Part shown: positions 1,639 to 34,095 of the stretch, piece after piece
Position numbering within the stretch: the first letter of the stretch is position 1
Layout of the letters: the number at the start of each line of letters is the position of its first letter
DNA from: an archaeon
Lineage (GTDB): Archaea > Nanobdellota > Nanobdellia > Pacearchaeales > UBA284
Assembly (NCBI GenBank): GCA_030612665.1
Contig: JAUWNL010000001.1
Coordinates: forward strand, 1 to 62,577
DNA length: 62,577 nt
Direction: 5' to 3'
Position numbers and translations under genes: made by a program
Notes under the pieces: generated by a model
What the model was told of the DNA's origin: nothing
The model's input: the letters and a program-made list of their open reading frames with translations, nothing else
The model's database searches: none

Positions 1639-2245
1639 TTTTATCAACCTCTAATCTGATGTCAGAAAAAACCACATCAATTTTTCGCGAAGAATCTATT
1701 ATCTTGATGTTATCTTTAAGATAATTAGGCAATAATAAAAATTTCTTTTTAACTCCTCTTAAAATATTAACTTTTTCAAAAAAAGCTTTTTTTTCTCCAG
1801 TCATGGCATATTTCTCCCTCACACGTTCGAGACCTATTTCAACAGGACAATCAAGAATAAAAATAATGCTTGGAAGAAGAAATTGAGAAGCATATTCCTG
1901 CCACTCGTTCTCGTCAAGTTGATAAGCAAGAGTGCTATAATAATATCTATCACAAATAACAACCTTTCCTTCTTCAAGAGCCCCCCGAATCCTCTGTAGA
2001 TTTTCTCTCCTGTCTGCTGTAAAAAGTTCAATCCATCTTTCTTTTTTTACATGAGAAGCTTGTTTTTTTCTCAAAAAACTTTCAATTTCCCGGCCATACT
2101 TACTATCTGTAGGCTCACTTGTAATAAAAACATCATGCCCTTTCCCTTTGGACTTTGATTCTAAATACTTTTTCAACAATACAACTTGTGTTGTCTTGCC
2201 AGCACCGTCAATTCCATCAATAACAATAAATATTTTTTGTTTCAT
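1628..2245 (-). CDS. tmk: Thymidylate (dTMP) kinase
   Basis: P-loop IVIDGIDGAGKTTQ at the N-terminus, DRYYYST motif, and a 205-aa length typical of the family. Confidence 0.9.
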   Translation of the reverse strand: MKQKIFIVIDGIDGAGKTTQVVLLKKYLESKSKGKGHDVFITSEPTDSKYGREIESFLRKKQASHVKKERWIELFTADRRENLQRIRGALEEGKVVICDRYYYSTLAYQLDENEWQEYASQFLLPSIIFILDCPVEIGLERVREKYAMTGEKKAFFEKVNILRGVKKKFLLLPNYLKDNIKIIDSSRKIDVVFSDIRLEVDKIIS

Positions 2246-2259
2246 TTTTGTTTATTCCA

Positions 2260-2658
2260 TCACCTCAAAGATACAATAACTCTCCTTTCACGAGGACCAT
2301 CAAATTCACACAACATAATCCCCTGCCATATTCCAAGCATAAGCTCTCCATCTTTAATTGGAATAAATTCTGAAGGTCCAATAAGCGCAGCTTTAATATG
2401 GGCTGCGCCATTATTATCAACTTTATCATGCAACCATTTTCCCTGTGGAATGATTTTATCAAGAAAATTTAAAAAATCAATACAAACTTTTTCATCATAA
2501 TTTTCATTTATTGTAATGGCCGCAGTAGCATGAGGAACATAGATATAACAAATCCCTTTCCCTTTCTTAGTCTTGTTTTTCTTAACAATCTCCTTAATCT
2601 TTGTTGTTAAATCAACAATCTCTTCTCTTCTTGTTGTTTTTATTATAAAGCTTGGCAT
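2260..2658 (-). CDS. YjbQ/UPF0047 family protein (secondary thiamine-phosphate synthase-like)
   Basis: Family-typical segments are YVPHATAAITINEN, AHIKAALIGPSEFIPIKDGELMLGIWQGI and EFDGPRERRV. Length is 132 aa. Confidence 0.85.
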   Translation of the reverse strand: MPSFIIKTTRREEIVDLTTKIKEIVKKNKTKKGKGICYIYVPHATAAITINENYDEKVCIDFLNFLDKIIPQGKWLHDKVDNNGAAHIKAALIGPSEFIPIKDGELMLGIWQGIMLCEFDGPRERRVIVSLR

Positions 2659-2834
2659 ATATTTAAAAAATCATTTTAATTTATAAACATTATGAGAAAA
2701 GAAAGAAAATAGAAGCAAGATTTAGATATCCTAAAAATAGGATAATATTATACTAAAAATGGATAATTAAAAGAAAAAGATGAAAAAAGAAGGAGGAAAA
2801 AGAGGAAAGAAAGAAGGAAAAGAAAGATTTAAAT

Positions 2835-2876
2835 ATAACCATAATCATGGTTATAATAACCTAAATAATGGTTATT
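2835..2876. promoter_or_regulatory. Two adjacent inverted repeats sharing ATAACC/GGTTAT half-sites with 21-bp spacing; candidate operator upstream of the MNT-HepT pair
   Basis: ATAACCAT-AATC-ATGGTTAT lies at 2835..2854 and AATAACC-N8-GGTTATT at 2855..2876. Both are 35-75 nt upstream of the ATG at 2911 and are followed by an AT-rich TATA-like stretch. Confidence 0.4.
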
Positions 2877-2910
2877 TATATACAAAAATAATAAATAGAG
2901 CGAATTTAAA

Positions 2911-3411
2911 ATGAAGTTATTAAATTTTTTAAAATCAAATAAGAATACAAGAAAAATATTTGGAAAAAGAGAATTAAGAATAATTGAAAAACAAATTTTT
3001 GGAGTAAATTTAACACAATCAGAAAAAAATAGACTTTCAAGAGACATTAGGAAAAAATTTGAATTTATAAAAGAAATTGCAACTCTCTCTGGGGAGTTTA
3101 AACTTAAAAAAGGAAGTGAAATAAAAAAAATGATTAAAGAAGCAAAAGAAGTTATTTTGAAAGATCCTCTTTTTAAGAAAATTAGAAAAATAATATTATA
3201 TGGATCTACAGTAGAGAATAAACTAACTCTTAAATCTGATATTGATATAGCAATTAAATTTTTAGATATAAATTTAAAAGAAGCAACAGTTTTTAGGAAA
3301 AGAATATTAGGGAGAGTTAATCCAAGAATTGACATACAAATATATAATCATTTGCCAAATAAAATTAAAAGAGAAATTGAGAATAAAGGAAAAATTTTAT
3401 ATGAAAAATGA
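2911..3411 (+). CDS. Nucleotidyltransferase-domain protein (MNT-type antitoxin) with N-terminal extension
   Basis: Minimal NTase motif LYGSTVENKLTLKSDIDIAI (GS...DxD). The stop overlaps the start of the downstream HEPN gene by 4 nt. Confidence 0.8.
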   Translation: MKLLNFLKSNKNTRKIFGKRELRIIEKQIFGVNLTQSEKNRLSRDIRKKFEFIKEIATLSGEFKLKKGSEIKKMIKEAKEVILKDPLFKKIRKIILYGSTVENKLTLKSDIDIAIKFLDINLKEATVFRKRILGRVNPRIDIQIYNHLPNKIKREIENKGKILYEK

Positions 3412-3803
3412 GAATAAAAGATAAAATAAAAGAAATTGAAAATTATCTTAATGAATTAGATGAAATTATGCCAAAAAGTTTTAAGGAATATAAAAAAATA
3501 GAAAAAAAAGCAGCATGTGAAAGATATTTTGAGAAAATTATTGAAGCGGTAATTGATTTAGTTTTTCTAATAATCAAAGACAAAAATTTAAAAATCCCTG
3601 AAGAAGATAGTGAAGCTTTTGATATCCTTTTAAAAGAAAATATAATTTCAGAAGAATTAGCTGAAAAATTTAAAGAAGCTAAAGGAATGAGAAATTTAAT
3701 TGCTCATAGATATGGTAATATAGATGATGAAATCGTTTTTCATTCAATTACAGAAGAATTAGAAAAAGATGTAAAAGAACTTATTAAGATTATTAAAAAA
3801 TAA
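3408..3803 (+). CDS. HepT/DUF86 HEPN-domain toxin-like protein
   Basis: Rx4HxY HEPN RNase motif (RNLIAHRYGNID). Length is 131 aa and it is translationally coupled to the upstream NTase gene. Confidence 0.85.
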   Translation: MRIKDKIKEIENYLNELDEIMPKSFKEYKKIEKKAACERYFEKIIEAVIDLVFLIIKDKNLKIPEEDSEAFDILLKENIISEELAEKFKEAKGMRNLIAHRYGNIDDEIVFHSITEELEKDVKELIKIIKK

Positions 3804-3804
3804 A

Positions 3805-4140
3805 ATGAGAAAGGAAACTAGAAAAGAAATCAAAAAAGAAACTAATAAAATATGTAAAATAATAGGTAAAAAAAAGCTAGAAAAATATTTTTCTATAACA
3901 AAAAAAGCTTTGGCTGTTGCAAAGAAACATATTAACAAAAAAAACAAAGGAAAGAAAAAAGAAGCTGAAACAATACTTGACATGGCTCAAAGATATTATG
4001 ACGATGCCCTATGGTTCAAAAAACAAGGCAATATAGTCAATGCCTTCGCCGCATTAAATTATGCTCATGGCTGGCTTGACACAGGCTCCAGATTAGGCAT
4101 ATTTCTTGTAAAAGACTCAAGATTATTTGTCATAAAATAA
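3805..4140 (+). CDS. DUF357-like archaeal protein
   Basis: The C-terminal segment AQRYYDDALWFKKQGNIVNAFAALNYAHGWLDTGSRLG matches my recollection of the DUF357 signature (YAxGWLDxGxRLG). The N-terminus is a basic low-complexity stretch. Confidence 0.65.
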   Translation: MRKETRKEIKKETNKICKIIGKKKLEKYFSITKKALAVAKKHINKKNKGKKKEAETILDMAQRYYDDALWFKKQGNIVNAFAALNYAHGWLDTGSRLGIFLVKDSRLFVIK

Positions 4141-4199
4141 AAAGAAAATAGAAAGGAAAAATAATTATTAATTATTTAATTATTAATTAATAATATTAA

Positions 4200-7100
4200 T
4201 TAATCATGGTCATTGATTGCATTCATCTTTTTCTTTGCTTCTGCCATTATTACAATTTTCTTTTTTGCTTCTGGCTTCCTGTATTTTTCAATACATTTAT
4301 GCATTTTTCTAAGAAGCTTTGATTCAGTTTCCCAAGCCATTATAGGATCATTAGAAATATCATCAATAAATTTCACTCCGGAATAAAATCTACCATCTTT
4401 AGAAAGTAAAGTAACAACACTACCACGCATACTTGCACATTTTCCAATTCTGTGGACATAACTATTATCTGGCTGATGCCCATAATCAAGATAAACTATT
4501 TTCCATCCTTTTACAGCCCATCCCCCTTGGTGTCTGTCTGCTGTGTAAATTACAGTAGAATCTGTTCTAGTGCCATGGATTTGCTTCCAAACATCACTTA
4601 TCTCAGTAGAACGATCAAAAGTCTTATGATAAAAATCTAATTTAAGTTTCTCATTTAACCAAACCTGTGAATAAGTATTTCCTTCGCCAGGATTTGTGAT
4701 AACTTTTAATAAACCAGATTCTCTAAATTCAAGAGGATAATATTTTGAAAGTCTTCCTGTTTCTCCAGGATTATGATTTCCATCTCCCATTAAAACAATC
4801 GTGTTATGATACATCATATCTTCAAGAATAGGTTTAGTTCCCCTAATATGCAGTTCATCCTGATCAGATTGCCTCCATTTAACTCTAAGTGATTCTTGTT
4901 CTTTATTATAGAAGAAAATCATAATATTATATTCATCTTTCGTAATATCCCCTTCCTTAAGAGCTTTATTCAAATATAAAAGATCATCTTGTTTTTCAGG
5001 TAATACTTTTGCTTTTCCTTGAGCTTTAGTATCAAATTGTCCAAATGCTAATTGACCATGAGTCATCTCTGTTAACTTGACATGAGAAGGATATCCAATA
5101 CTATCAAAAGCATTTGTGAAAGTTGTTCTTATGGTGTCCCCTTCAATAGGCCTTCCTTTTGTATTACAAGTTCCTCTATGTTCATCATCATCAAGAAGAT
5201 CTATCTGGAAATTGGCTTTTACTTTATCTAAAATCCCATTAAGAGAATTATTCAATTCTTTTCTTTTTACTTTTGATAATTTTTTATCTTTTAACTGTTC
5301 TTTAATATTCTTATACCTTGTCCAATACTTTGCTCCCATTTTAGCTAATTCATAAGTTTCAATAGTGTAAGCTTCTGGTTTCCCATCAGCTTTATCAATA
5401 TAAATCAAAGGACCTGCCTGGAATCCTCTTTTAATTTTTCTTTTTATAGCCCATGTTCTCCCTGGTCCTCTTGAAGCAATATTATCAATTCTTTCTCCAT
5501 CATGCATAACTGCTCCTTTAATAAAAGTAATTGGTTTTGGGATAGCAACATATTCATTTTCAACCCATGTCTCACCAATAGCTTTTTTTCTCTGAACTTC
5601 AACACCACCAGCACCATACCCTGTAAAAATAATATCTGCAGTACATAATCTTAATTTTGAATATTTGTCTTTCTTAATCTCCCCCGCACTAAGATGCTTG
5701 GCAACTGTCTCTGCAAGAGCTTCATTAAAATATAGTTGGATTCTTCTTGAATCCCCTTCTTTCGGATAACTAGACCTTTGGAAATCAGGATTTGGAAATA
5801 AAGCAATAGTCATTCCTCCAATATCAACATAATGTGTTGCTTCATGGGGGCTGACCCCTGGATCAAATAACTTGCCAGATCTGTATTTTCCTTGGCCAGG
5901 CATTGTTTCTTCTGCTAAAGTTGTCTCAAGGCTGCTTAAAATTCTAAGATTTTTGAATTTCTTGCCTACAAATTTAGGAAGATGTTTGAAAAACATATCT
6001 TGATAATGTTTATTATATCTCTTTTTAACAAGATAAGCAGTCATCTTTGCTTGTAAATTATTAATAGTCCTTTTTTTAGTCAACCACCACATTCTTGCGC
6101 TTGTCTCTTCTTTTAATTTCAGTTTTAATTCATTTAATTTAGAAATTTTTCCTTCTAATCCAAATATCTTTTCATCAGTTTGCTCTATTTTTTCTGTGCG
6201 TATATCTTTCACTCTTTCTGCTTCATAAAGAGATTTAATATTAGCATAAAATTCTAGCATAGCATCATTAAAATACTCATCAAAACTCTTTCCCTTTTCT
6301 TTTCCTTTCTTTTTTTCCTTTCTTTTTTCCTTATCTTTTTCCCAGCGAGTATTAAATCTTATAAATCTCTTCAAACCAATTTCTTCTAGAAGTTTTTTCT
6401 TGATTTTTGCTTTCTTTCTCTGGAAAGCAGTTCCATTATAAATATTATTTTTAACAAAATCTTGCAATTCAGAACCAAGTTTTTCTTTTCCTTCTTTTTG
6501 TCTTTTTTTTGTTTGTTCTAATCTTTTTATAACATAATTGCCTAAGGATTCATACATCTCATATATTGCTCTCTCCTTAACTCTATGTATGTGTTCTTCT
6601 TCTAAATCATCGAGTTTTGCTATTTCTTCTTCTTGTGCTTTTCTTATCTTTTCCCCCACTATAAATAATTCTAATGACTGATTCATATTATAATAATCTG
6701 CCATACTATATTGATAGAATATTGCAGTATTTTTATTAAGAACATCAAAAGTAGGAGCAAGCCAATATGCCCCCTCGACAGATAATTGCTCAAGGGTAGT
6801 AGGAGTATCTATAATATATTTTTTAATATGTTCCCTGTCTTCCTTAGTAAATTCTGGGGATTCCATGGCTCTACGAATCTGCCCCAATTCTTCTTCTATT
6901 TCCTTTGTTGTAATCTCCTTCTTAAGAACCCCTCTCTTTTTGGCAAGTTCTGACCTTGCCACCTGTTTCATTCTTTCATGATTTAATTTTGACCACATTG
7001 CAGGATTTTCAGGCATTCCTCCTCCCTGCATAATAAATGATTTAAGTTTTGGGGCATAATTTTGAGCTTCGATGAAAAGAGCAAATCCTTTGAAGATGTC

Positions 7101-7496
7101 TGAATTCCCATAAGTAGCACCTAATCCTAATTCAGAGCAAAAAATATGAATTTTGTCTTCTTTATAATTTCCATTGTCTTTGCCATCTCCTTCAATTCTT
7201 CTTAGCCTTTCTTGTCTTGCAAGTCTTCTTATTCTTGCTTCATCTTGAGAAAAAATTCCACAAGGCACATCTCCAGGAAGCTCCCAATATTCCTCAACAT
7301 TATCCATTACTCTTCTAATTCTCTTCTCACCAACTCCAATCTTCTTAACTAAATCATCTAAACTAACTTTCCCAGCAGCAAGTGGAGAAGCTTGCGCTTC
7401 TTTAGAAAAAATATTACTTAAATCAGTTCCATCATAAAATTTACCTAAGGTCTTCAATAACTTAAGCTCAAGAGACCCCTTTTTTAGCCCTCTCAT
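4200..7496 (-). CDS. Large (1098 aa) uncharacterised protein: HTH-like N-terminus, K/E-rich coiled-coil middle, phosphoesterase-like C-terminal region
   Basis: Long uninterrupted ORF. N-terminal SLDDLVKKIGVGEKRIRRVM looks HTH-like. A central ~200-aa K/E-rich heptad-like region follows. C-terminal motifs occur in the order DDDEH, GDGNHN, ADRHQGG, DYGHQ. No Walker A is visible. Confidence 0.7.
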   Translation of the reverse strand: MRGLKKGSLELKLLKTLGKFYDGTDLSNIFSKEAQASPLAAGKVSLDDLVKKIGVGEKRIRRVMDNVEEYWELPGDVPCGIFSQDEARIRRLARQERLRRIEGDGKDNGNYKEDKIHIFCSELGLGATYGNSDIFKGFALFIEAQNYAPKLKSFIMQGGGMPENPAMWSKLNHERMKQVARSELAKKRGVLKKEITTKEIEEELGQIRRAMESPEFTKEDREHIKKYIIDTPTTLEQLSVEGAYWLAPTFDVLNKNTAIFYQYSMADYYNMNQSLELFIVGEKIRKAQEEEIAKLDDLEEEHIHRVKERAIYEMYESLGNYVIKRLEQTKKRQKEGKEKLGSELQDFVKNNIYNGTAFQRKKAKIKKKLLEEIGLKRFIRFNTRWEKDKEKRKEKKKGKEKGKSFDEYFNDAMLEFYANIKSLYEAERVKDIRTEKIEQTDEKIFGLEGKISKLNELKLKLKEETSARMWWLTKKRTINNLQAKMTAYLVKKRYNKHYQDMFFKHLPKFVGKKFKNLRILSSLETTLAEETMPGQGKYRSGKLFDPGVSPHEATHYVDIGGMTIALFPNPDFQRSSYPKEGDSRRIQLYFNEALAETVAKHLSAGEIKKDKYSKLRLCTADIIFTGYGAGGVEVQRKKAIGETWVENEYVAIPKPITFIKGAVMHDGERIDNIASRGPGRTWAIKRKIKRGFQAGPLIYIDKADGKPEAYTIETYELAKMGAKYWTRYKNIKEQLKDKKLSKVKRKELNNSLNGILDKVKANFQIDLLDDDEHRGTCNTKGRPIEGDTIRTTFTNAFDSIGYPSHVKLTEMTHGQLAFGQFDTKAQGKAKVLPEKQDDLLYLNKALKEGDITKDEYNIMIFFYNKEQESLRVKWRQSDQDELHIRGTKPILEDMMYHNTIVLMGDGNHNPGETGRLSKYYPLEFRESGLLKVITNPGEGNTYSQVWLNEKLKLDFYHKTFDRSTEISDVWKQIHGTRTDSTVIYTADRHQGGWAVKGWKIVYLDYGHQPDNSYVHRIGKCASMRGSVVTLLSKDGRFYSGVKFIDDISNDPIMAWETESKLLRKMHKCIEKYRKPEAKKKIVIMAEAKKKMNAINDHD

Positions 7497-7560
7497 TATA
7501 CCTTATAATACATTTTTCAATTTAAAAATATTCTTGCAATTTTGAATATACTTTATTTTT

Positions 7561-8337
7561 CTACCTTCTACTCTTTTTCAGAGTAATATAATAAAATCTT
7601 TCACAATTCCCACAATCCTTACAATAAGCTGATTCATATGTGCCACACTGGAGAACCCCATAAAATCTTTTTATGAATGAGTCAAGGACTTCTTGTCTTT
7701 TTTGTTTTTTTATCATGAAATATGGATTAGTGACATTTTTCTTTTTTTCATAATCATTTAAATATTCTTTAGGAATTCTCTCTCCATTCTTATATCTCAT
7801 AAAGGTTAAGATAATGGGGACTTTCTGTCTTTCATAAGCAGCTATAGCACTTTCTGCTAATTTAAGATTCCAGGTATTTATACGGAAGCGAACAAACATT
7901 AAATTTACTGGTGCCTTAACAATAACCGCCATTTCATTAGTTTGTTCTGAATTACAAGTAAAAACAACTGGTCCAGGAAAATCAAATTTTGGGATAGAAG
8001 TATTAAAGAAAAAATCATCAAATTGTTCTGAAACTTTTATAACTAAATCTCTTTGGTTGTTACTATCATTTCCAGAATTAAATCTAACTATTTTTCCTTT
8101 TGTTAATTCTTTTTTGGGAATATTACTTGCATATTTTGGGACATACCATCCATCTTGAAAATAACAATCAATTCCACAATCATGACTTTTAGCTAAAGGA
8201 CACTTACCAGCTTGCGGAGTACAATCAATAATTTTTGTTCCTTTCGATAATTTTGGATTATAAAAATAACCCACCCCTTTTTCTCTCTTTTTCTTTACCT
8301 CTTTTGATCTCTTTTTGTCATCTCCTTTAGCCATCAA
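7561..8337 (-). CDS. Uncharacterised Cys-cluster protein (258 aa), first gene of the operon with 4200..7496
   Basis: Two Cys clusters: CTPQAGKCPLAKSHDCGIDCY (C-x6-C-x7-C-x3-C) and CGTYESAYCKDCGNC (C-x7-C-x2-C-x2-C). GGAGGT lies about 10 nt upstream of the ATG. A 64-nt gap separates it from the downstream gene on the same strand. Confidence 0.7.
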   Translation of the reverse strand: MMAKGDDKKRSKEVKKKREKGVGYFYNPKLSKGTKIIDCTPQAGKCPLAKSHDCGIDCYFQDGWYVPKYASNIPKKELTKGKIVRFNSGNDSNNQRDLVIKVSEQFDDFFFNTSIPKFDFPGPVVFTCNSEQTNEMAVIVKAPVNLMFVRFRINTWNLKLAESAIAAYERQKVPIILTFMRYKNGERIPKEYLNDYEKKKNVTNPYFMIKKQKRQEVLDSFIKRFYGVLQCGTYESAYCKDCGNCERFYYITLKKSRR

Positions 8338-8604
8338 GTTTCTGACCTCCTTCCGCCAGGAAGAATATAATGCATTACAATAAATAATAAAAAATTAAAA
8401 GAAAGCTCTTTAAAAATCATTTCTATGATTTAAACAAGATATCAAAACAAAAATGTTAAAAAAACAGTATTAAAAGAAAGGTATTCTAAAAATAACATTT
8501 AAATATAATCTTTAAATAATAGTATTATAGAAAATAAGAAAATTAGAGACTAAGAAAATAAGAGAATAAAAGAATAAAAAGATATAACAACAAATAATAA
8601 AAAA

Positions 8605-9195
8605 ATGCAAGATTTTTTCATTGGGAAAAAAAATAAGAAAATTGAAAAGAAAGCCCTAGCTCTTGGCCTCGAAATTGTATTTCTCAAAAAAATTTCTAAT
8701 GTTGAAGAATTAGATGTAAAAAAAGATTCAAAAGATTATGATGCAATCCTCATAAAAACCCAAGATACTGGCATGATGAGAAGACTTATTGACAAAACAT
8801 CAAATTTTTTCAAATTTATTATTATCTTAGGCACAAATGACGAAATAAACCGCGCATGTCTTGAACATAAAAAAACAATAGCCCTGCTTAGCCCAGAATA
8901 CAGCAGAAGAAAAGATTTTATCAATTACCGTAATTCAGGCCTCAATCAAGTATTATGTAAAATTGCTCGCGATAATAAAAAAACCATAATTGAAAGTTTT
9001 TCAAGCATCCTCAATGCAGACAAGAAAAACAAGGCAATAATTCTTGGAAGAATAATTCAAAATGAAAAACTCTGTAGAAAATACAATGTAAAATTTATTC
9101 TTAGAAATATGGCAATAGATGAAAAAGAGATGAAATCAGCTCATGAACTAAAGAATTCTCAACAAATATTATCAAATACTACCATCTTAAAATAG
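8605..9195 (+). CDS. rnp3: RNase P protein component 3 (Rpp30/Rnp3)-like
   Basis: The pattern NRACLEHKKTIALLSPE ... SGLNQVLCKIARDNKKTIIESFSSIL ... KAIILGRIIQNEKLCRKYNVKFIL ... A.DEKEMKS matches the archaeal Rpp30 TIM-barrel layout as I recall it. Confidence 0.6.
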   Translation: MQDFFIGKKNKKIEKKALALGLEIVFLKKISNVEELDVKKDSKDYDAILIKTQDTGMMRRLIDKTSNFFKFIIILGTNDEINRACLEHKKTIALLSPEYSRRKDFINYRNSGLNQVLCKIARDNKKTIIESFSSILNADKKNKAIILGRIIQNEKLCRKYNVKFILRNMAIDEKEMKSAHELKNSQQILSNTTILK

Positions 9196-33301: not shown

Positions 33302-33712
33302 ATGATAAATAGAAAAAGAAGATATAAAGATAAACTTAATTATGCTTTATCAAGTTTAGAAAGAAGCCAAAAATGGCTTATGGAGTTTGAAGAGAGAGAA
33401 AAAGAAAATGATTTATTTGCTGCATACAAAGCATTTCAAGAACTTGTAGAGTCATTAACAGATGTGATTGCCATGTTCTTAAAAGATAAAAACCTAGTTA
33501 TAAAAGATGATTATACAAATATAAATACATTAAAAGAAAAGAATTTAATAATAAAGGCCGAGGCTAAAATATTAATAGAAGCAAATGGATTAAGAAACAG
33601 GATTGTTCATAAATACAATGGAGTTGATATTAAAACATTTATTGAATCAGCAAAATCTTTATTAAAACCTCTAAATGAAATAATTAAAAATTTTGAAAAA
33701 TGGATAAAATAA
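33302..33712 (+). CDS. HepT/DUF86 HEPN toxin-like protein
   Basis: Rx4H motif GLRNRIVHKYNGVD. It overlaps the downstream NTase gene by 13 nt. Confidence 0.8.
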   Translation: MINRKRRYKDKLNYALSSLERSQKWLMEFEEREKENDLFAAYKAFQELVESLTDVIAMFLKDKNLVIKDDYTNINTLKEKNLIIKAEAKILIEANGLRNRIVHKYNGVDIKTFIESAKSLLKPLNEIIKNFEKWIK

Positions 33713-34095
33713 ATAAACAAAAAGAACAAACAATAAAAGAAATAGAAAAAGAATTTTCAAAATTTAAAAGAGAAATTTTTGCCTTAATTCTTTATGGCTC
33801 ATACTCCCAAGGTAATGAAACAATAAAAAGTGATATAGATATCTGTATTGTAGCAAAAAATAAAGAAAAAGCACAAGAACTTTATCGAAATACTCTTGAA
33901 ATCTCATCAAAAAAACCAGAGTATGATATACATTTTTTTGAATTAATGCCTTTACATGCACAAATAGAAGTAATAGAAACAGGACAAATTATTTTTACTA
34001 AAAATATTTCAGAACTTAATTATTATTTTTATTTTTATAGAAAGCTCTGGCAAGATCAAGCAATACACAGAATTGAACAAATAAGGGCAAAATAG
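33700..34095 (+). CDS. MNT-type nucleotidyltransferase (antitoxin-like)
   Basis: LILYGSYSQGNETIKSDIDICIV motif. The gene order is reversed (HEPN first) relative to the other pairs. Confidence 0.8.
   Translation: MDKINKQKEQTIKEIEKEFSKFKREIFALILYGSYSQGNETIKSDIDICIVAKNKEKAQELYRNTLEISSKKPEYDIHFFELMPLHAQIEVIETGQIIFTKNISELNYYFYFYRKLWQDQAIHRIEQIRAK

Follow-up and report, generated by a model that had tools for sequence, protein, structure and literature searches.

Introduction

Mre11/SbcD combines a two-metal phosphoesterase fold, whose motifs follow in the order DxH ... GNH ... H ... H, with a long coiled coil that is provided in trans by Rad50/SbcC. The same fold is present in DP1 of the archaeal PolD, with which the B subunits of eukaryotic polymerases are grouped here, and in the class III phosphodiesterases Rv0805 and GpdQ, which are single-domain enzymes of 230-300 amino acids (aa) acting on small molecules and have neither a coiled coil nor domains like those that bind DNA. 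Enzymes of the radical S-adenosylmethionine (SAM) superfamily, such as viperin, MoaA/PqqE-like proteins and phage radical-SAM proteins, carry a CxxxCxxC motif followed by an aromatic residue. Here we compare with these systems two adjacent genes on a 62,577-nt stretch of the archaeal contig JAUWNL010000001.1, which is called the window in the following. One gene encodes a protein of 1098 aa, referred to as the giant, and the other a small cysteine-rich protein.

Like Mre11/SbcD, the giant shows the fold and the motif order of two-metal phosphoesterases together with a long coiled coil, but the latter is present in cis. It also differs in its length, in having as additional parts a helix-turn-helix-like region, a possible degenerate half-domain and a basic domain in the middle, in an apparently replaced Asp of motif II, and in the lack of any NCBIfam or Pfam match to Mre11/SbcD; Mre11_2nd is found in only 2 of 45 family members (E 0.029). 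DP1 is the best Foldseek match of the C-terminal domain and is, like the giant, archaeal. Nevertheless, the giant has no Pfam or NCBIfam match to DP1, the target TM-score is only about 0.37 and the overall architecture is unrelated. Rv0805 and GpdQ reach the highest target TM-scores (0.42-0.56), while their size and single-domain organization set them apart. The small protein resembles radical-SAM enzymes in a partial-barrel model with best fold matches to this superfamily, but it is short with about 235 aa, shows C-x7-C-x3-C spacing in the clade of the window and has a distinctive C-terminal C-x7-C-x2-C-x2-C motif.

On balance, we consider it probable that the locus comprises two neighbouring genes on the chromosome of a DPANN-type archaeon, each with its own promoter, and not a dedicated system, with the giant acting as a phosphoesterase or nuclease and the small protein being radical-SAM-like. 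Both would be new, divergent members of known superfamilies, and it is the architecture of the giant that is novel. Lineage-specific hypothetical families dominate the signatures of major archaeal groups (PMC9258230). The giant family looks like one such family.

Results

Predicted phosphoesterase domain of the giant

An AlphaFold2 model of the giant based on 45 family sequences reached a mean pLDDT of 85.6 and a pTM of 0.80. When the model was compared with the PDB by Foldseek, only calcineurin-like metallophosphoesterases were retrieved, with a probability of 1.00 for the top ten matches. PolD DP1 was the best of these (9f2a_A, E 2.4e-4), followed by Rv0805 (3ib7, E 1e-3) and Mre11 (5dny and 4tug, E 2-5e-3); GpdQ, Vps29, the Pol epsilon B subunit and purple acid phosphatase were also among the matches. 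The motifs of the domain are D771-x-H773-x-G775 (within DDDEH, 769), G906-N907-H908 (within GDGNHN, 904), H957, D987-R988-H989 (DRH, 987) and YGHQ (1005). Their order is that of canonical metallophosphoesterases, with DxH as motif I, GNH as motif III and His residues as motifs IV and V, and a helical insert is located at residues 832-896. In the alignment of the 45 sequences, which share 15-25% identity, D771 and H773 are near-invariant, while G906, N907, H908, H957 and H989 are invariant, and the same was seen in alignments A4 and A6. Because the Foldseek matches and the invariant signature residues agree, the DDDEH, GDGNHN and DRH motifs, which a first-pass annotation had listed as phosphoesterase-like, indeed map onto a metallophosphatase fold. 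The model shows the C-terminus of the giant as a predicted two-metal calcineurin-like phosphoesterase with intact catalytic motifs, and as an extremely remote member of the superfamily.

Sequence comparison reveals little of this relationship. Pfam Metallophos was matched by 2 of the 45 family members (best E 1.4e-5) and the giant itself has no match to PF00149. Searches of PDB sequences with the profile of the whole family or of the C-terminal domain yielded coiled-coil noise or nothing, and no phosphoesterase. When the C-terminal domain was compared by hhalign with one Mre11 and one Metallophos protein, both taken from related loci, only the strand of motif IV was aligned.

Architecture of the giant

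The coordinates of all features are given in Table 1. The N-terminus is tentatively read as a helix-turn-helix from the model. Its profile matches to Z-alpha and Lrp-type winged helices are weak and individually non-significant (E 0.013-0.12), and a conserved basic helix follows at residues 84-99. The motifs of domain A are degenerate (SELGLG at residue 121, QGGG, and D267/N270, of which D267 and N270 are invariant in alignment A4). An in-register hhalign comparison of domain A with the C-terminal domain gave P-values of 0.002-0.006 versus 0.34-0.57 for reversed controls, and placed SELGLG, QGGG and D267/N270 at the positions of motifs I-III. This suggests an internal duplication, in which domain A would represent a degenerate phosphoesterase half-domain that carries the coiled coil. 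SELGLG had been regarded as a degenerate motif I already in the first-pass annotation; its place in the possible half-domain is the right one, while the alignment supports this identity weakly.

The following arm corresponds to the K/E-rich coiled coil that was noticed before. It is predicted to form an antiparallel coiled coil with breaks near residues 333-342, 374-405 and 466-479, it contains no Cys, and the PDB profile matches in this region are generic coiled coils. Domain B is strand-rich and basic, with residues 529-559 disordered and S575, P578, G631, H665, K685, R686 and K689 invariant in the family. No significant similarity was detected between domain B and the second half of the C-terminal domain (P 0.11-0.18; reversed control 0.077). 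Taken together, the model describes a helix-turn-helix, a possible degenerate half-domain with a coiled coil, a basic domain and a phosphoesterase domain with intact motifs, an arrangement without counterpart among the Pfam, NCBIfam or PDB matches. To our knowledge, no other protein has this architecture.

Table 1 Features of the two genes and of other genes in the window
Feature	Residues	Position (strand)	Basis or remark
Giant gene	1-1098	4200-7496 (-)	ATG start; pI (isoelectric point) 9.3
C-terminal basic helix, pI 9.7	1056-1098	4203-4331 (-)	model helix 1055-1097
Predicted calcineurin-like metallophosphoesterase domain	761-1055	4332-5216 (-)	Foldseek, invariant columns
Domain B, basic (pI 9.7), strand-rich	511-760	5217-5966 (-)	model, alignment
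K/E-rich helical arm, ~245 aa	265-510	5967-6704 (-)	model helices 265-332, 342-373, 405-465, 480-510
Domain A	106-264	6705-7181 (-)	strand-helix-strand / helical insert / strand, as first half of phosphoesterase domain
N-terminal helix-turn-helix-like region	1-75	7272-7496 (-)	model helices 9-20, 46-53, 57-70
Upstream element of giant, ~37 nt, AAAGTATATTCAAAATTGCAAGAATATTTTTAAATTG		7518-7554 (-)	conserved in window, L013, L012, L001
TTTTTAAA box		7528-7521 (-)	32 nt before giant ATG
Small gene; radical-SAM-like Fe-S protein, uncurated family	1-258 (TTG start)	7561-8337 (-)	homologues, AlphaFold2 model
C231-x7-C239-x2-C242-x2-C245	231-245	7603-7647 (-)	invariant in 49 aligned homologues
Cys triad C46-x7-C54-x3-C58, then Tyr-Phe	46-58	8164-8202 (-)	loop after strand 1 (model)
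Shine-Dalgarno sequence of small gene, GGAGGT		8350-8345 (-)	before ATG 8334
TATA-like box of small gene		8416-8409 (-)	82 nt before ATG
Upstream region of small gene, conserved AGAAATnnTTTTTAAAGAG		8338-8430 (-)	conserved in window, L013, L012
Nucleotidyltransferase (Polbeta/MNT) gene		2911-3411 (+)	overlaps next gene
HepT (HEPN) gene		3408-3803 (+)
Sigma-70-like gene	402 aa	9253-10461 (+)	Pfam, NCBIfam
Diphthamide_syn fragment	84 aa	10485-10739 (-)	first ~56 of 302 profile positions
RNA polymerase subunit A gene	1221 aa	12394-16059 (-)	Rpb1 domains 1-5
Probable surface protein gene	1379 aa	29153-33292 (+)	no Pfam domain
Two short open reading frames		33302-34095
Probable surface protein gene, PKD domain	860 aa	34133-36715 (+)

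The giant might also derive from a known housekeeping machine, as a strongly diverged orthologue or a fusion, either an Mre11-Rad50 fusion lacking the ATPase or an exonuclease subunit like DP1 of PolD. The arm resembles Rad50/SbcC, DP1 and Mre11 are the best fold matches, the two weak Mre11_2nd matches point in the same direction, and the gene stands in a housekeeping setting. On the other hand, a regular-expression search of 75 family sequences revealed neither a CxxC zinc hook nor a Walker A motif, apart from one chance G-x4-GK[ST] match in a single protein, so that the absence of a P-loop noted in the first reading holds for the family. NCBIfam and Pfam give no match of the giant to Mre11, SbcD or DP1, and the domain profile finds no PDB phosphoesterase by sequence. 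Neither in the window nor at about 20 related loci does a Rad50/SbcC-type ABC-ATPase gene adjoin the giant, and no DP2 gene was found in its neighbourhood in the window. Furthermore, the related locus L010 contains, at a distance of 5 kb from its giant homologue, the gene for a canonical Mre11 (1805-3052; NF041029, E 9e-31). Thus, the giant is not simply the Mre11 of this genome and has not replaced it there. We consider an origin from such a machine quite improbable, and a Rad50/SMC-type ATPase was rejected as identity of the giant for want of a P-loop and a zinc hook. As a separate observation, the L010 mre11 gene, which belongs to a Woesearchaeota-type genome, lies between the genes for S15 and the CCA enzyme and has no adjacent rad50.

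The small protein

By sequence homology, 527 relatives of the small protein were found (E ≤ 1e-3), two of which, with NCBI names, come from Patescibacteria. The N-terminal cysteine cluster reads C39-x6-C46-x7-C54-x3-C58-Y59 in full, and C46, C54 and C58 are invariant in the 49-sequence alignment A2. In most of these 49 homologues the corresponding segment, located after strand 1, is G-x-C-P-x-x-C-x-x-C-(F/Y)-(Y/F)-N and equals the canonical radical-SAM CxxxCxxC motif with its aromatic residue. The four C-terminal cysteines form a putative auxiliary Fe-S or zinc site.

The AlphaFold2 model of the small protein is barrel-like (pLDDT 90.6). Its best match in the PDB was viperin (6q2p; E 0.067, probability 0.77, TM 0.42), followed by assorted TIM barrels, and its best match in BFVD was the radical-SAM protein H6SU85 (E 0.022, probability 0.97), with one protein of the MoaA/NifB/PqqE family and several 'Fe-S oxidoreductases' also retrieved. 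An hhalign comparison with four bona fide radical-SAM proteins aligned only the Cys loop with the cluster loop, at non-significant P-values of 0.009-0.14. With moderate confidence, the small protein is regarded as a divergent radical-SAM-like enzyme. Its invariant cysteines and weak fold matches are in line with the radical-SAM affinities of this Cys-cluster protein suspected in the first-pass annotation. The proposed likeness to Gp37/Gp68 (DUF5131) was not confirmed, since there was no Pfam match and a Gp37/Gp68-like viral protein appeared only at rank 21 (E 0.43).

The small family is frequent on uncultured viral contigs of up to 548 kb, with 143 loci in IMG/VR confirmed by tblastn. Neighbour counts from the 80 loci kept for analysis (L021-L100) gave DNA ligase in 22, DeoC aldolase and a nucleoside deoxyribosyltransferase-like protein in 18 each, N6/N4 DNA methylase in 17, RNA ligase in 12, D12 methylase in 11, NT5C deoxynucleotidase in 10 and Dam in 8. 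These viral neighbours, with functions in DNA metabolism, suggest a nucleotide or a nucleic acid as substrate of the small family, which on viral contigs may mark a nucleotide or DNA-modification module of the virus.

Gene calls

The two co-directional open reading frames on the minus strand, separated by 64 nt and flanked by DUF357 and an RNase P p30-like (Rpp30) gene, were present as described before, and all motifs quoted for both proteins were found at the given spacing and in the given order. For the small gene, TTG 8337 as start results in 258 aa, and ATG 8334 in 257 aa. The latter start is more likely because it is preceded by a GGAGGT Shine-Dalgarno sequence and matches the database gene call (P0004). 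On comparative grounds both genes are taken to be real: relatives of the giant make up 69 clusters, the most distant at about 23% identity, and the small protein is backed by its 527 homologues. Scans with the single sequences of both proteins against Pfam, NCBIfam, PHROGs, PADLOC and PDB returned noise only, in agreement with the earlier statement that neither can be assigned to a curated family. Matches to the HVO_0758 zinc finger, MepK and phrog_2602 stayed below any threshold and were rejected.

Distribution and genomic context of the giant

A word-indexed search of 5.8 billion proteins with the giant yielded the protein itself and two relatives (61% and 50% identity), and its repetition with a 45-sequence profile returned the same three proteins and nothing more. 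When 1.84 billion cluster representatives were searched exhaustively by HMMER with the three-sequence profile, 69 clusters were identified at E ≤ 1e-3, 23 of them at E ≤ 1e-30. Non-fragment clusters are mostly 820-1145 aa long (family range roughly 820-1150 aa). Members of the family have so far turned up in archaea only. Seven loci come from GTDB species genomes, which are labelled Candidatus Woesearchaeota (three), Nanoarchaeota, Nanoarchaeia, 'archaeon' and, in one case, a 'Methanosarcinales' metagenome-assembled genome. The A1 pattern searches of GTDB genomes and Joint Genome Institute (JGI) metagenomes found nothing. No description of the giant family was found in the literature searched.

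All readable contexts of the giant are chromosomal archaeal housekeeping neighbourhoods, with genes for NMD3, RPB9/TFS, RpoL, ribosomal protein S15, the archaeal CCA enzyme, CDP-archaeol synthase (CarS) and FtsZ among the neighbours. Clustering of the neighbours across 22 loci showed that an MTS-type methyltransferase recurs near the giant at six loci, in the close clade as well as in a clade of about 25% identity, and that NusA-KH together with RNA polymerase genes recurs at three. Because the same neighbours recur in close and distant clades, the giant is read as an old, vertically inherited gene of the archaeal chromosome.

The window itself is archaeal and AT-rich (~30% G+C), and contains genes for RNA polymerase A and B, a NusA-like KH protein, thymidylate kinase, an isoleucyl-type tRNA synthetase and a diphthamide-synthesis fragment. 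This setting bears on the suggestion, also made in the first-pass annotation, that the pair is an anti-virus defence module or the cargo of a mobile element. The combination of nuclease and coiled coil is reminiscent of SbcCD-like and Lamassu-like defence proteins, members of the small family are often found on viral contigs, and a toxin-antitoxin pair lies about 400 nt away. However, neither protein had a PADLOC match at E ≤ 1, homologues of the giant were not found in IMG/VR viral contigs, and tblastn of both proteins against GenBank phages gave no match. There are no meaningful flanking repeats within 3800-8800, and no integrase or tRNA boundary flanking the pair was found. The G+C content of the pair (0.31-0.33) is higher than that of the immediate flanks (0.25-0.26) but stays inside the window-wide range of a 2-kb composition profile. 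The pair sits in a conserved block of RNA polymerase, NusA and RNase P genes, whose synteny is kept across clades. We regard defence or mobile-element function as a false lead that has hardly any chance of being correct.

The toxin-antitoxin pair consists of overlapping genes for a nucleotidyltransferase (Polbeta/MNT) and HepT (HEPN), and is located directly beside DUF357 on the side of the giant stop codon.

Relationship of the two genes

The small gene directly precedes the giant gene at three loci: the window, L013 (identity of 72% for the small protein and, over 805 aa, of 90% for the giant) and L012 (71% and 46.5%, respectively, followed by DUF357). The sister lineage L001-L003, with a giant of 50% identity, shows the same synteny from RNA polymerase via RNase P p30 to DUF357, and in its slot upstream of the giant a 406-aa protein with a Pfam Radical_SAM match (E 4.5e-11) and generic NrdG/PflA-like NCBIfam matches below cut-off is encoded. 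Kinship of this protein with the small protein was rejected because no similarity was detectable. At about 18 giant loci of greater distance such a partner is missing; only L011 has a radical-SAM gene in the vicinity, which is of the B12 type and located two genes away. The immediate neighbours at the distant loci vary and include NMD3, a PLD-like protein, a HerA-like ATPase, uracil-DNA glycosylase, a LigD 3'-phosphoesterase and a methyltransferase. Conversely, the small-family homologues sampled elsewhere occur in unrelated contexts without a giant; P0008, for instance, which is 58% identical, lies between a ferredoxin and a TtcA-like gene. For the small-family member P0017 and the giant-family member P0128, the longest contig given is in both cases a Logan contig of 25,867 nt, on which the two genes may occur together at a distance of more than 10 kb. 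An 883-aa protein encoded upstream of the small homologue in L007 was considered as a relative of the giant and turned out to be unrelated. From the loci compared, the position of the small gene upstream of the giant appears to be a local feature of one clade. Conservation of the pair thus extends to L012 and L013, and not to the sister lineage or the distant giant loci.

Each gene has its own conserved upstream element. The element of the giant is kept despite a different upstream gene in L001 and despite the divergence of the giant protein in L012. When both strands of the window are counted, there are only 40 copies of its TTTTTAAA octamer. The element is a putative promoter with a transcription factor B recognition element (BRE) and a TATA box, giving rise to a leaderless or near-leaderless transcript. 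Upstream of the small gene, the leader TTCTTCCTGGCGGAAGGAGGTCAGAA, which ends in the Shine-Dalgarno sequence, is almost invariant between the window, L012 (2084-2199) and L013 (883-998), with a protein identity of only about 71%. The leader can fold into a short hairpin that overlaps the Shine-Dalgarno sequence; this hairpin was no more stable than shuffled sequences (z -0.57), and an Rfam scan of 3800-8800, including the leader, gave no match. Since each gene has its own conserved TATA-like element, two transcription units are the simplest reading.

Nevertheless, a genuine two-component module has to be considered, in which a radical-SAM enzyme modifies or repairs a nucleic acid or nucleotide, or matures the giant, the giant processes the product, and the partner is exchangeable. 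The adjacency is retained in three lineages despite a divergence of their giants to 46.5% identity, and an unrelated radical-SAM protein occupies the same slot in a fourth. Both window genes carry the same rare AATnTTTTTAAA-type upstream box, and the small family is found among viral DNA-metabolism genes. Against this module stand the distant giant loci without a radical-SAM neighbour, the wide occurrence of the small family (including 143 viral loci) as opposed to the absence of the giant from viral contigs, the context of P0008, the giant's own promoter-like element and the missing similarity between the two slot-filling proteins. We rate the module as rather unlikely. A dedicated two-gene system, as it was initially proposed in the form of an operon, is not supported, given adjacency in close relatives only, distant loci without a partner and separate TATA-like elements.

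Other genes of the window

The 402-aa sigma-70-like protein shows bacterial sigma-70 features in an archaeal genome (Pfam Sigma70_r4, 2.2e-8; NCBIfam TIGR02937 sigma70-ECF, 48.8 bits versus a cut-off of 42.9). Its gene is a direct neighbour of the RNase P p30-like gene and lies close to the RNA polymerase operon, and this arrangement is kept in the sister genome, where the orthologue lies at L001 6578-7936. RNA polymerase subunit A is split into A' and A'' in most archaea. In the window, Rpb1 domains 1-5 are encoded by a single open reading frame, likewise in L001 (1204 aa). The Diphthamide_syn fragment has a counterpart of 87 aa in the sister genome (L001 6275-6538). Given this conservation, it is possibly a mini-gene that has been retained rather than a recent pseudogene. 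Further downstream, the 1379-aa protein and the 860-aa PKD-domain protein, whose genes are separated by two short open reading frames, are probably surface proteins.

Discussion

According to the preferred reading of two separate chromosomal genes, the giant would bind nucleic acid by its basic N-terminal helix-turn-helix, domain B and the tail, and would then cleave phosphodiester bonds as a nuclease on DNA or RNA ends, comparable to Mre11, SbcD or DP1. Its substrate would be nucleic acid, and its nuclease or phosphodiesterase activity would depend on Mn or Fe. The coiled-coil arm, which would be an insertion into the degenerate half-domain, could serve dimerisation or tethering. In the small protein, C46, C54 and C58 would hold a [4Fe-4S] cluster for a SAM radical mechanism, and the four C-terminal cysteines a second cluster or zinc.

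Several observations weigh against this reading. In the giant, a conserved T-E810-x-L-H813-G814 segment follows strand 2 where the GD of motif II is usual, so that the canonical bridging Asp appears to be replaced by a conserved Glu/His segment. For the small protein, none of 49 family members matched Pfam (E ≤ 1) or NCBIfam, including Radical_SAM PF04055. The protein of the window and its four closest relatives have a 4+1-residue insertion that results in the non-canonical C-x7-C-x3-C spacing, and the fold matches are weak (E 0.02-0.07, TM about 0.42-0.45, none at E ≤ 0.001). With regard to the separation of the two genes, a radical-SAM-type gene is found upstream of the giant in all four close-clade lineages with a visible slot (window, L013, L012, L001). 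Conservation of this slot by two unrelated kinds of protein could indicate a functional link, and co-transcription of the small gene and the giant by read-through is conceivable.

Finally, the cyclic-nucleotide and glycerophosphodiester phosphodiesterases Rv0805 and GpdQ fit the fold of the giant about as well as nucleases do. The main functional alternative is therefore a phosphodiesterase role like that of Rv0805, in which the substrate of the giant is a small molecule, for example a linear or cyclic nucleotide, as with Rv0805, CpdA or GpdQ, and the helix-turn-helix makes the giant a regulator and not a nuclease. The two enzymes are among the best fold matches and have the top target TM-scores, but the size of the giant, its basic domains and its long coiled coil would be atypical of such phosphodiesterases. 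We give this role little credence.

A more far-reaching idea is that the giant is a self-contained, ATPase-less analogue of Mre11-Rad50, so far confined to DPANN-type archaea. The degenerate and the active phosphoesterase would form an intramolecular pseudo-dimer, the arm in the degenerate copy would tether or sense DNA ends, and in one clade the upstream radical-SAM partner would act on damaged or modified nucleic acid. This idea is speculative and, as a whole, unlikely to be true.

The family represented by the small protein is radical-SAM-like and uncurated, numbers hundreds of members and is a candidate for new nucleotide or DNA chemistry. Now that the catalytic domain of the giant is named, a concrete biochemical test and a list of active-site mutants are available. 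DPANN archaea have tiny genomes, and a gene of about 3.3 kb without a database name is retained in these reduced genomes near core transcription genes. Because of its large size, its retention and this location, the giant probably does something important in nucleic-acid handling.

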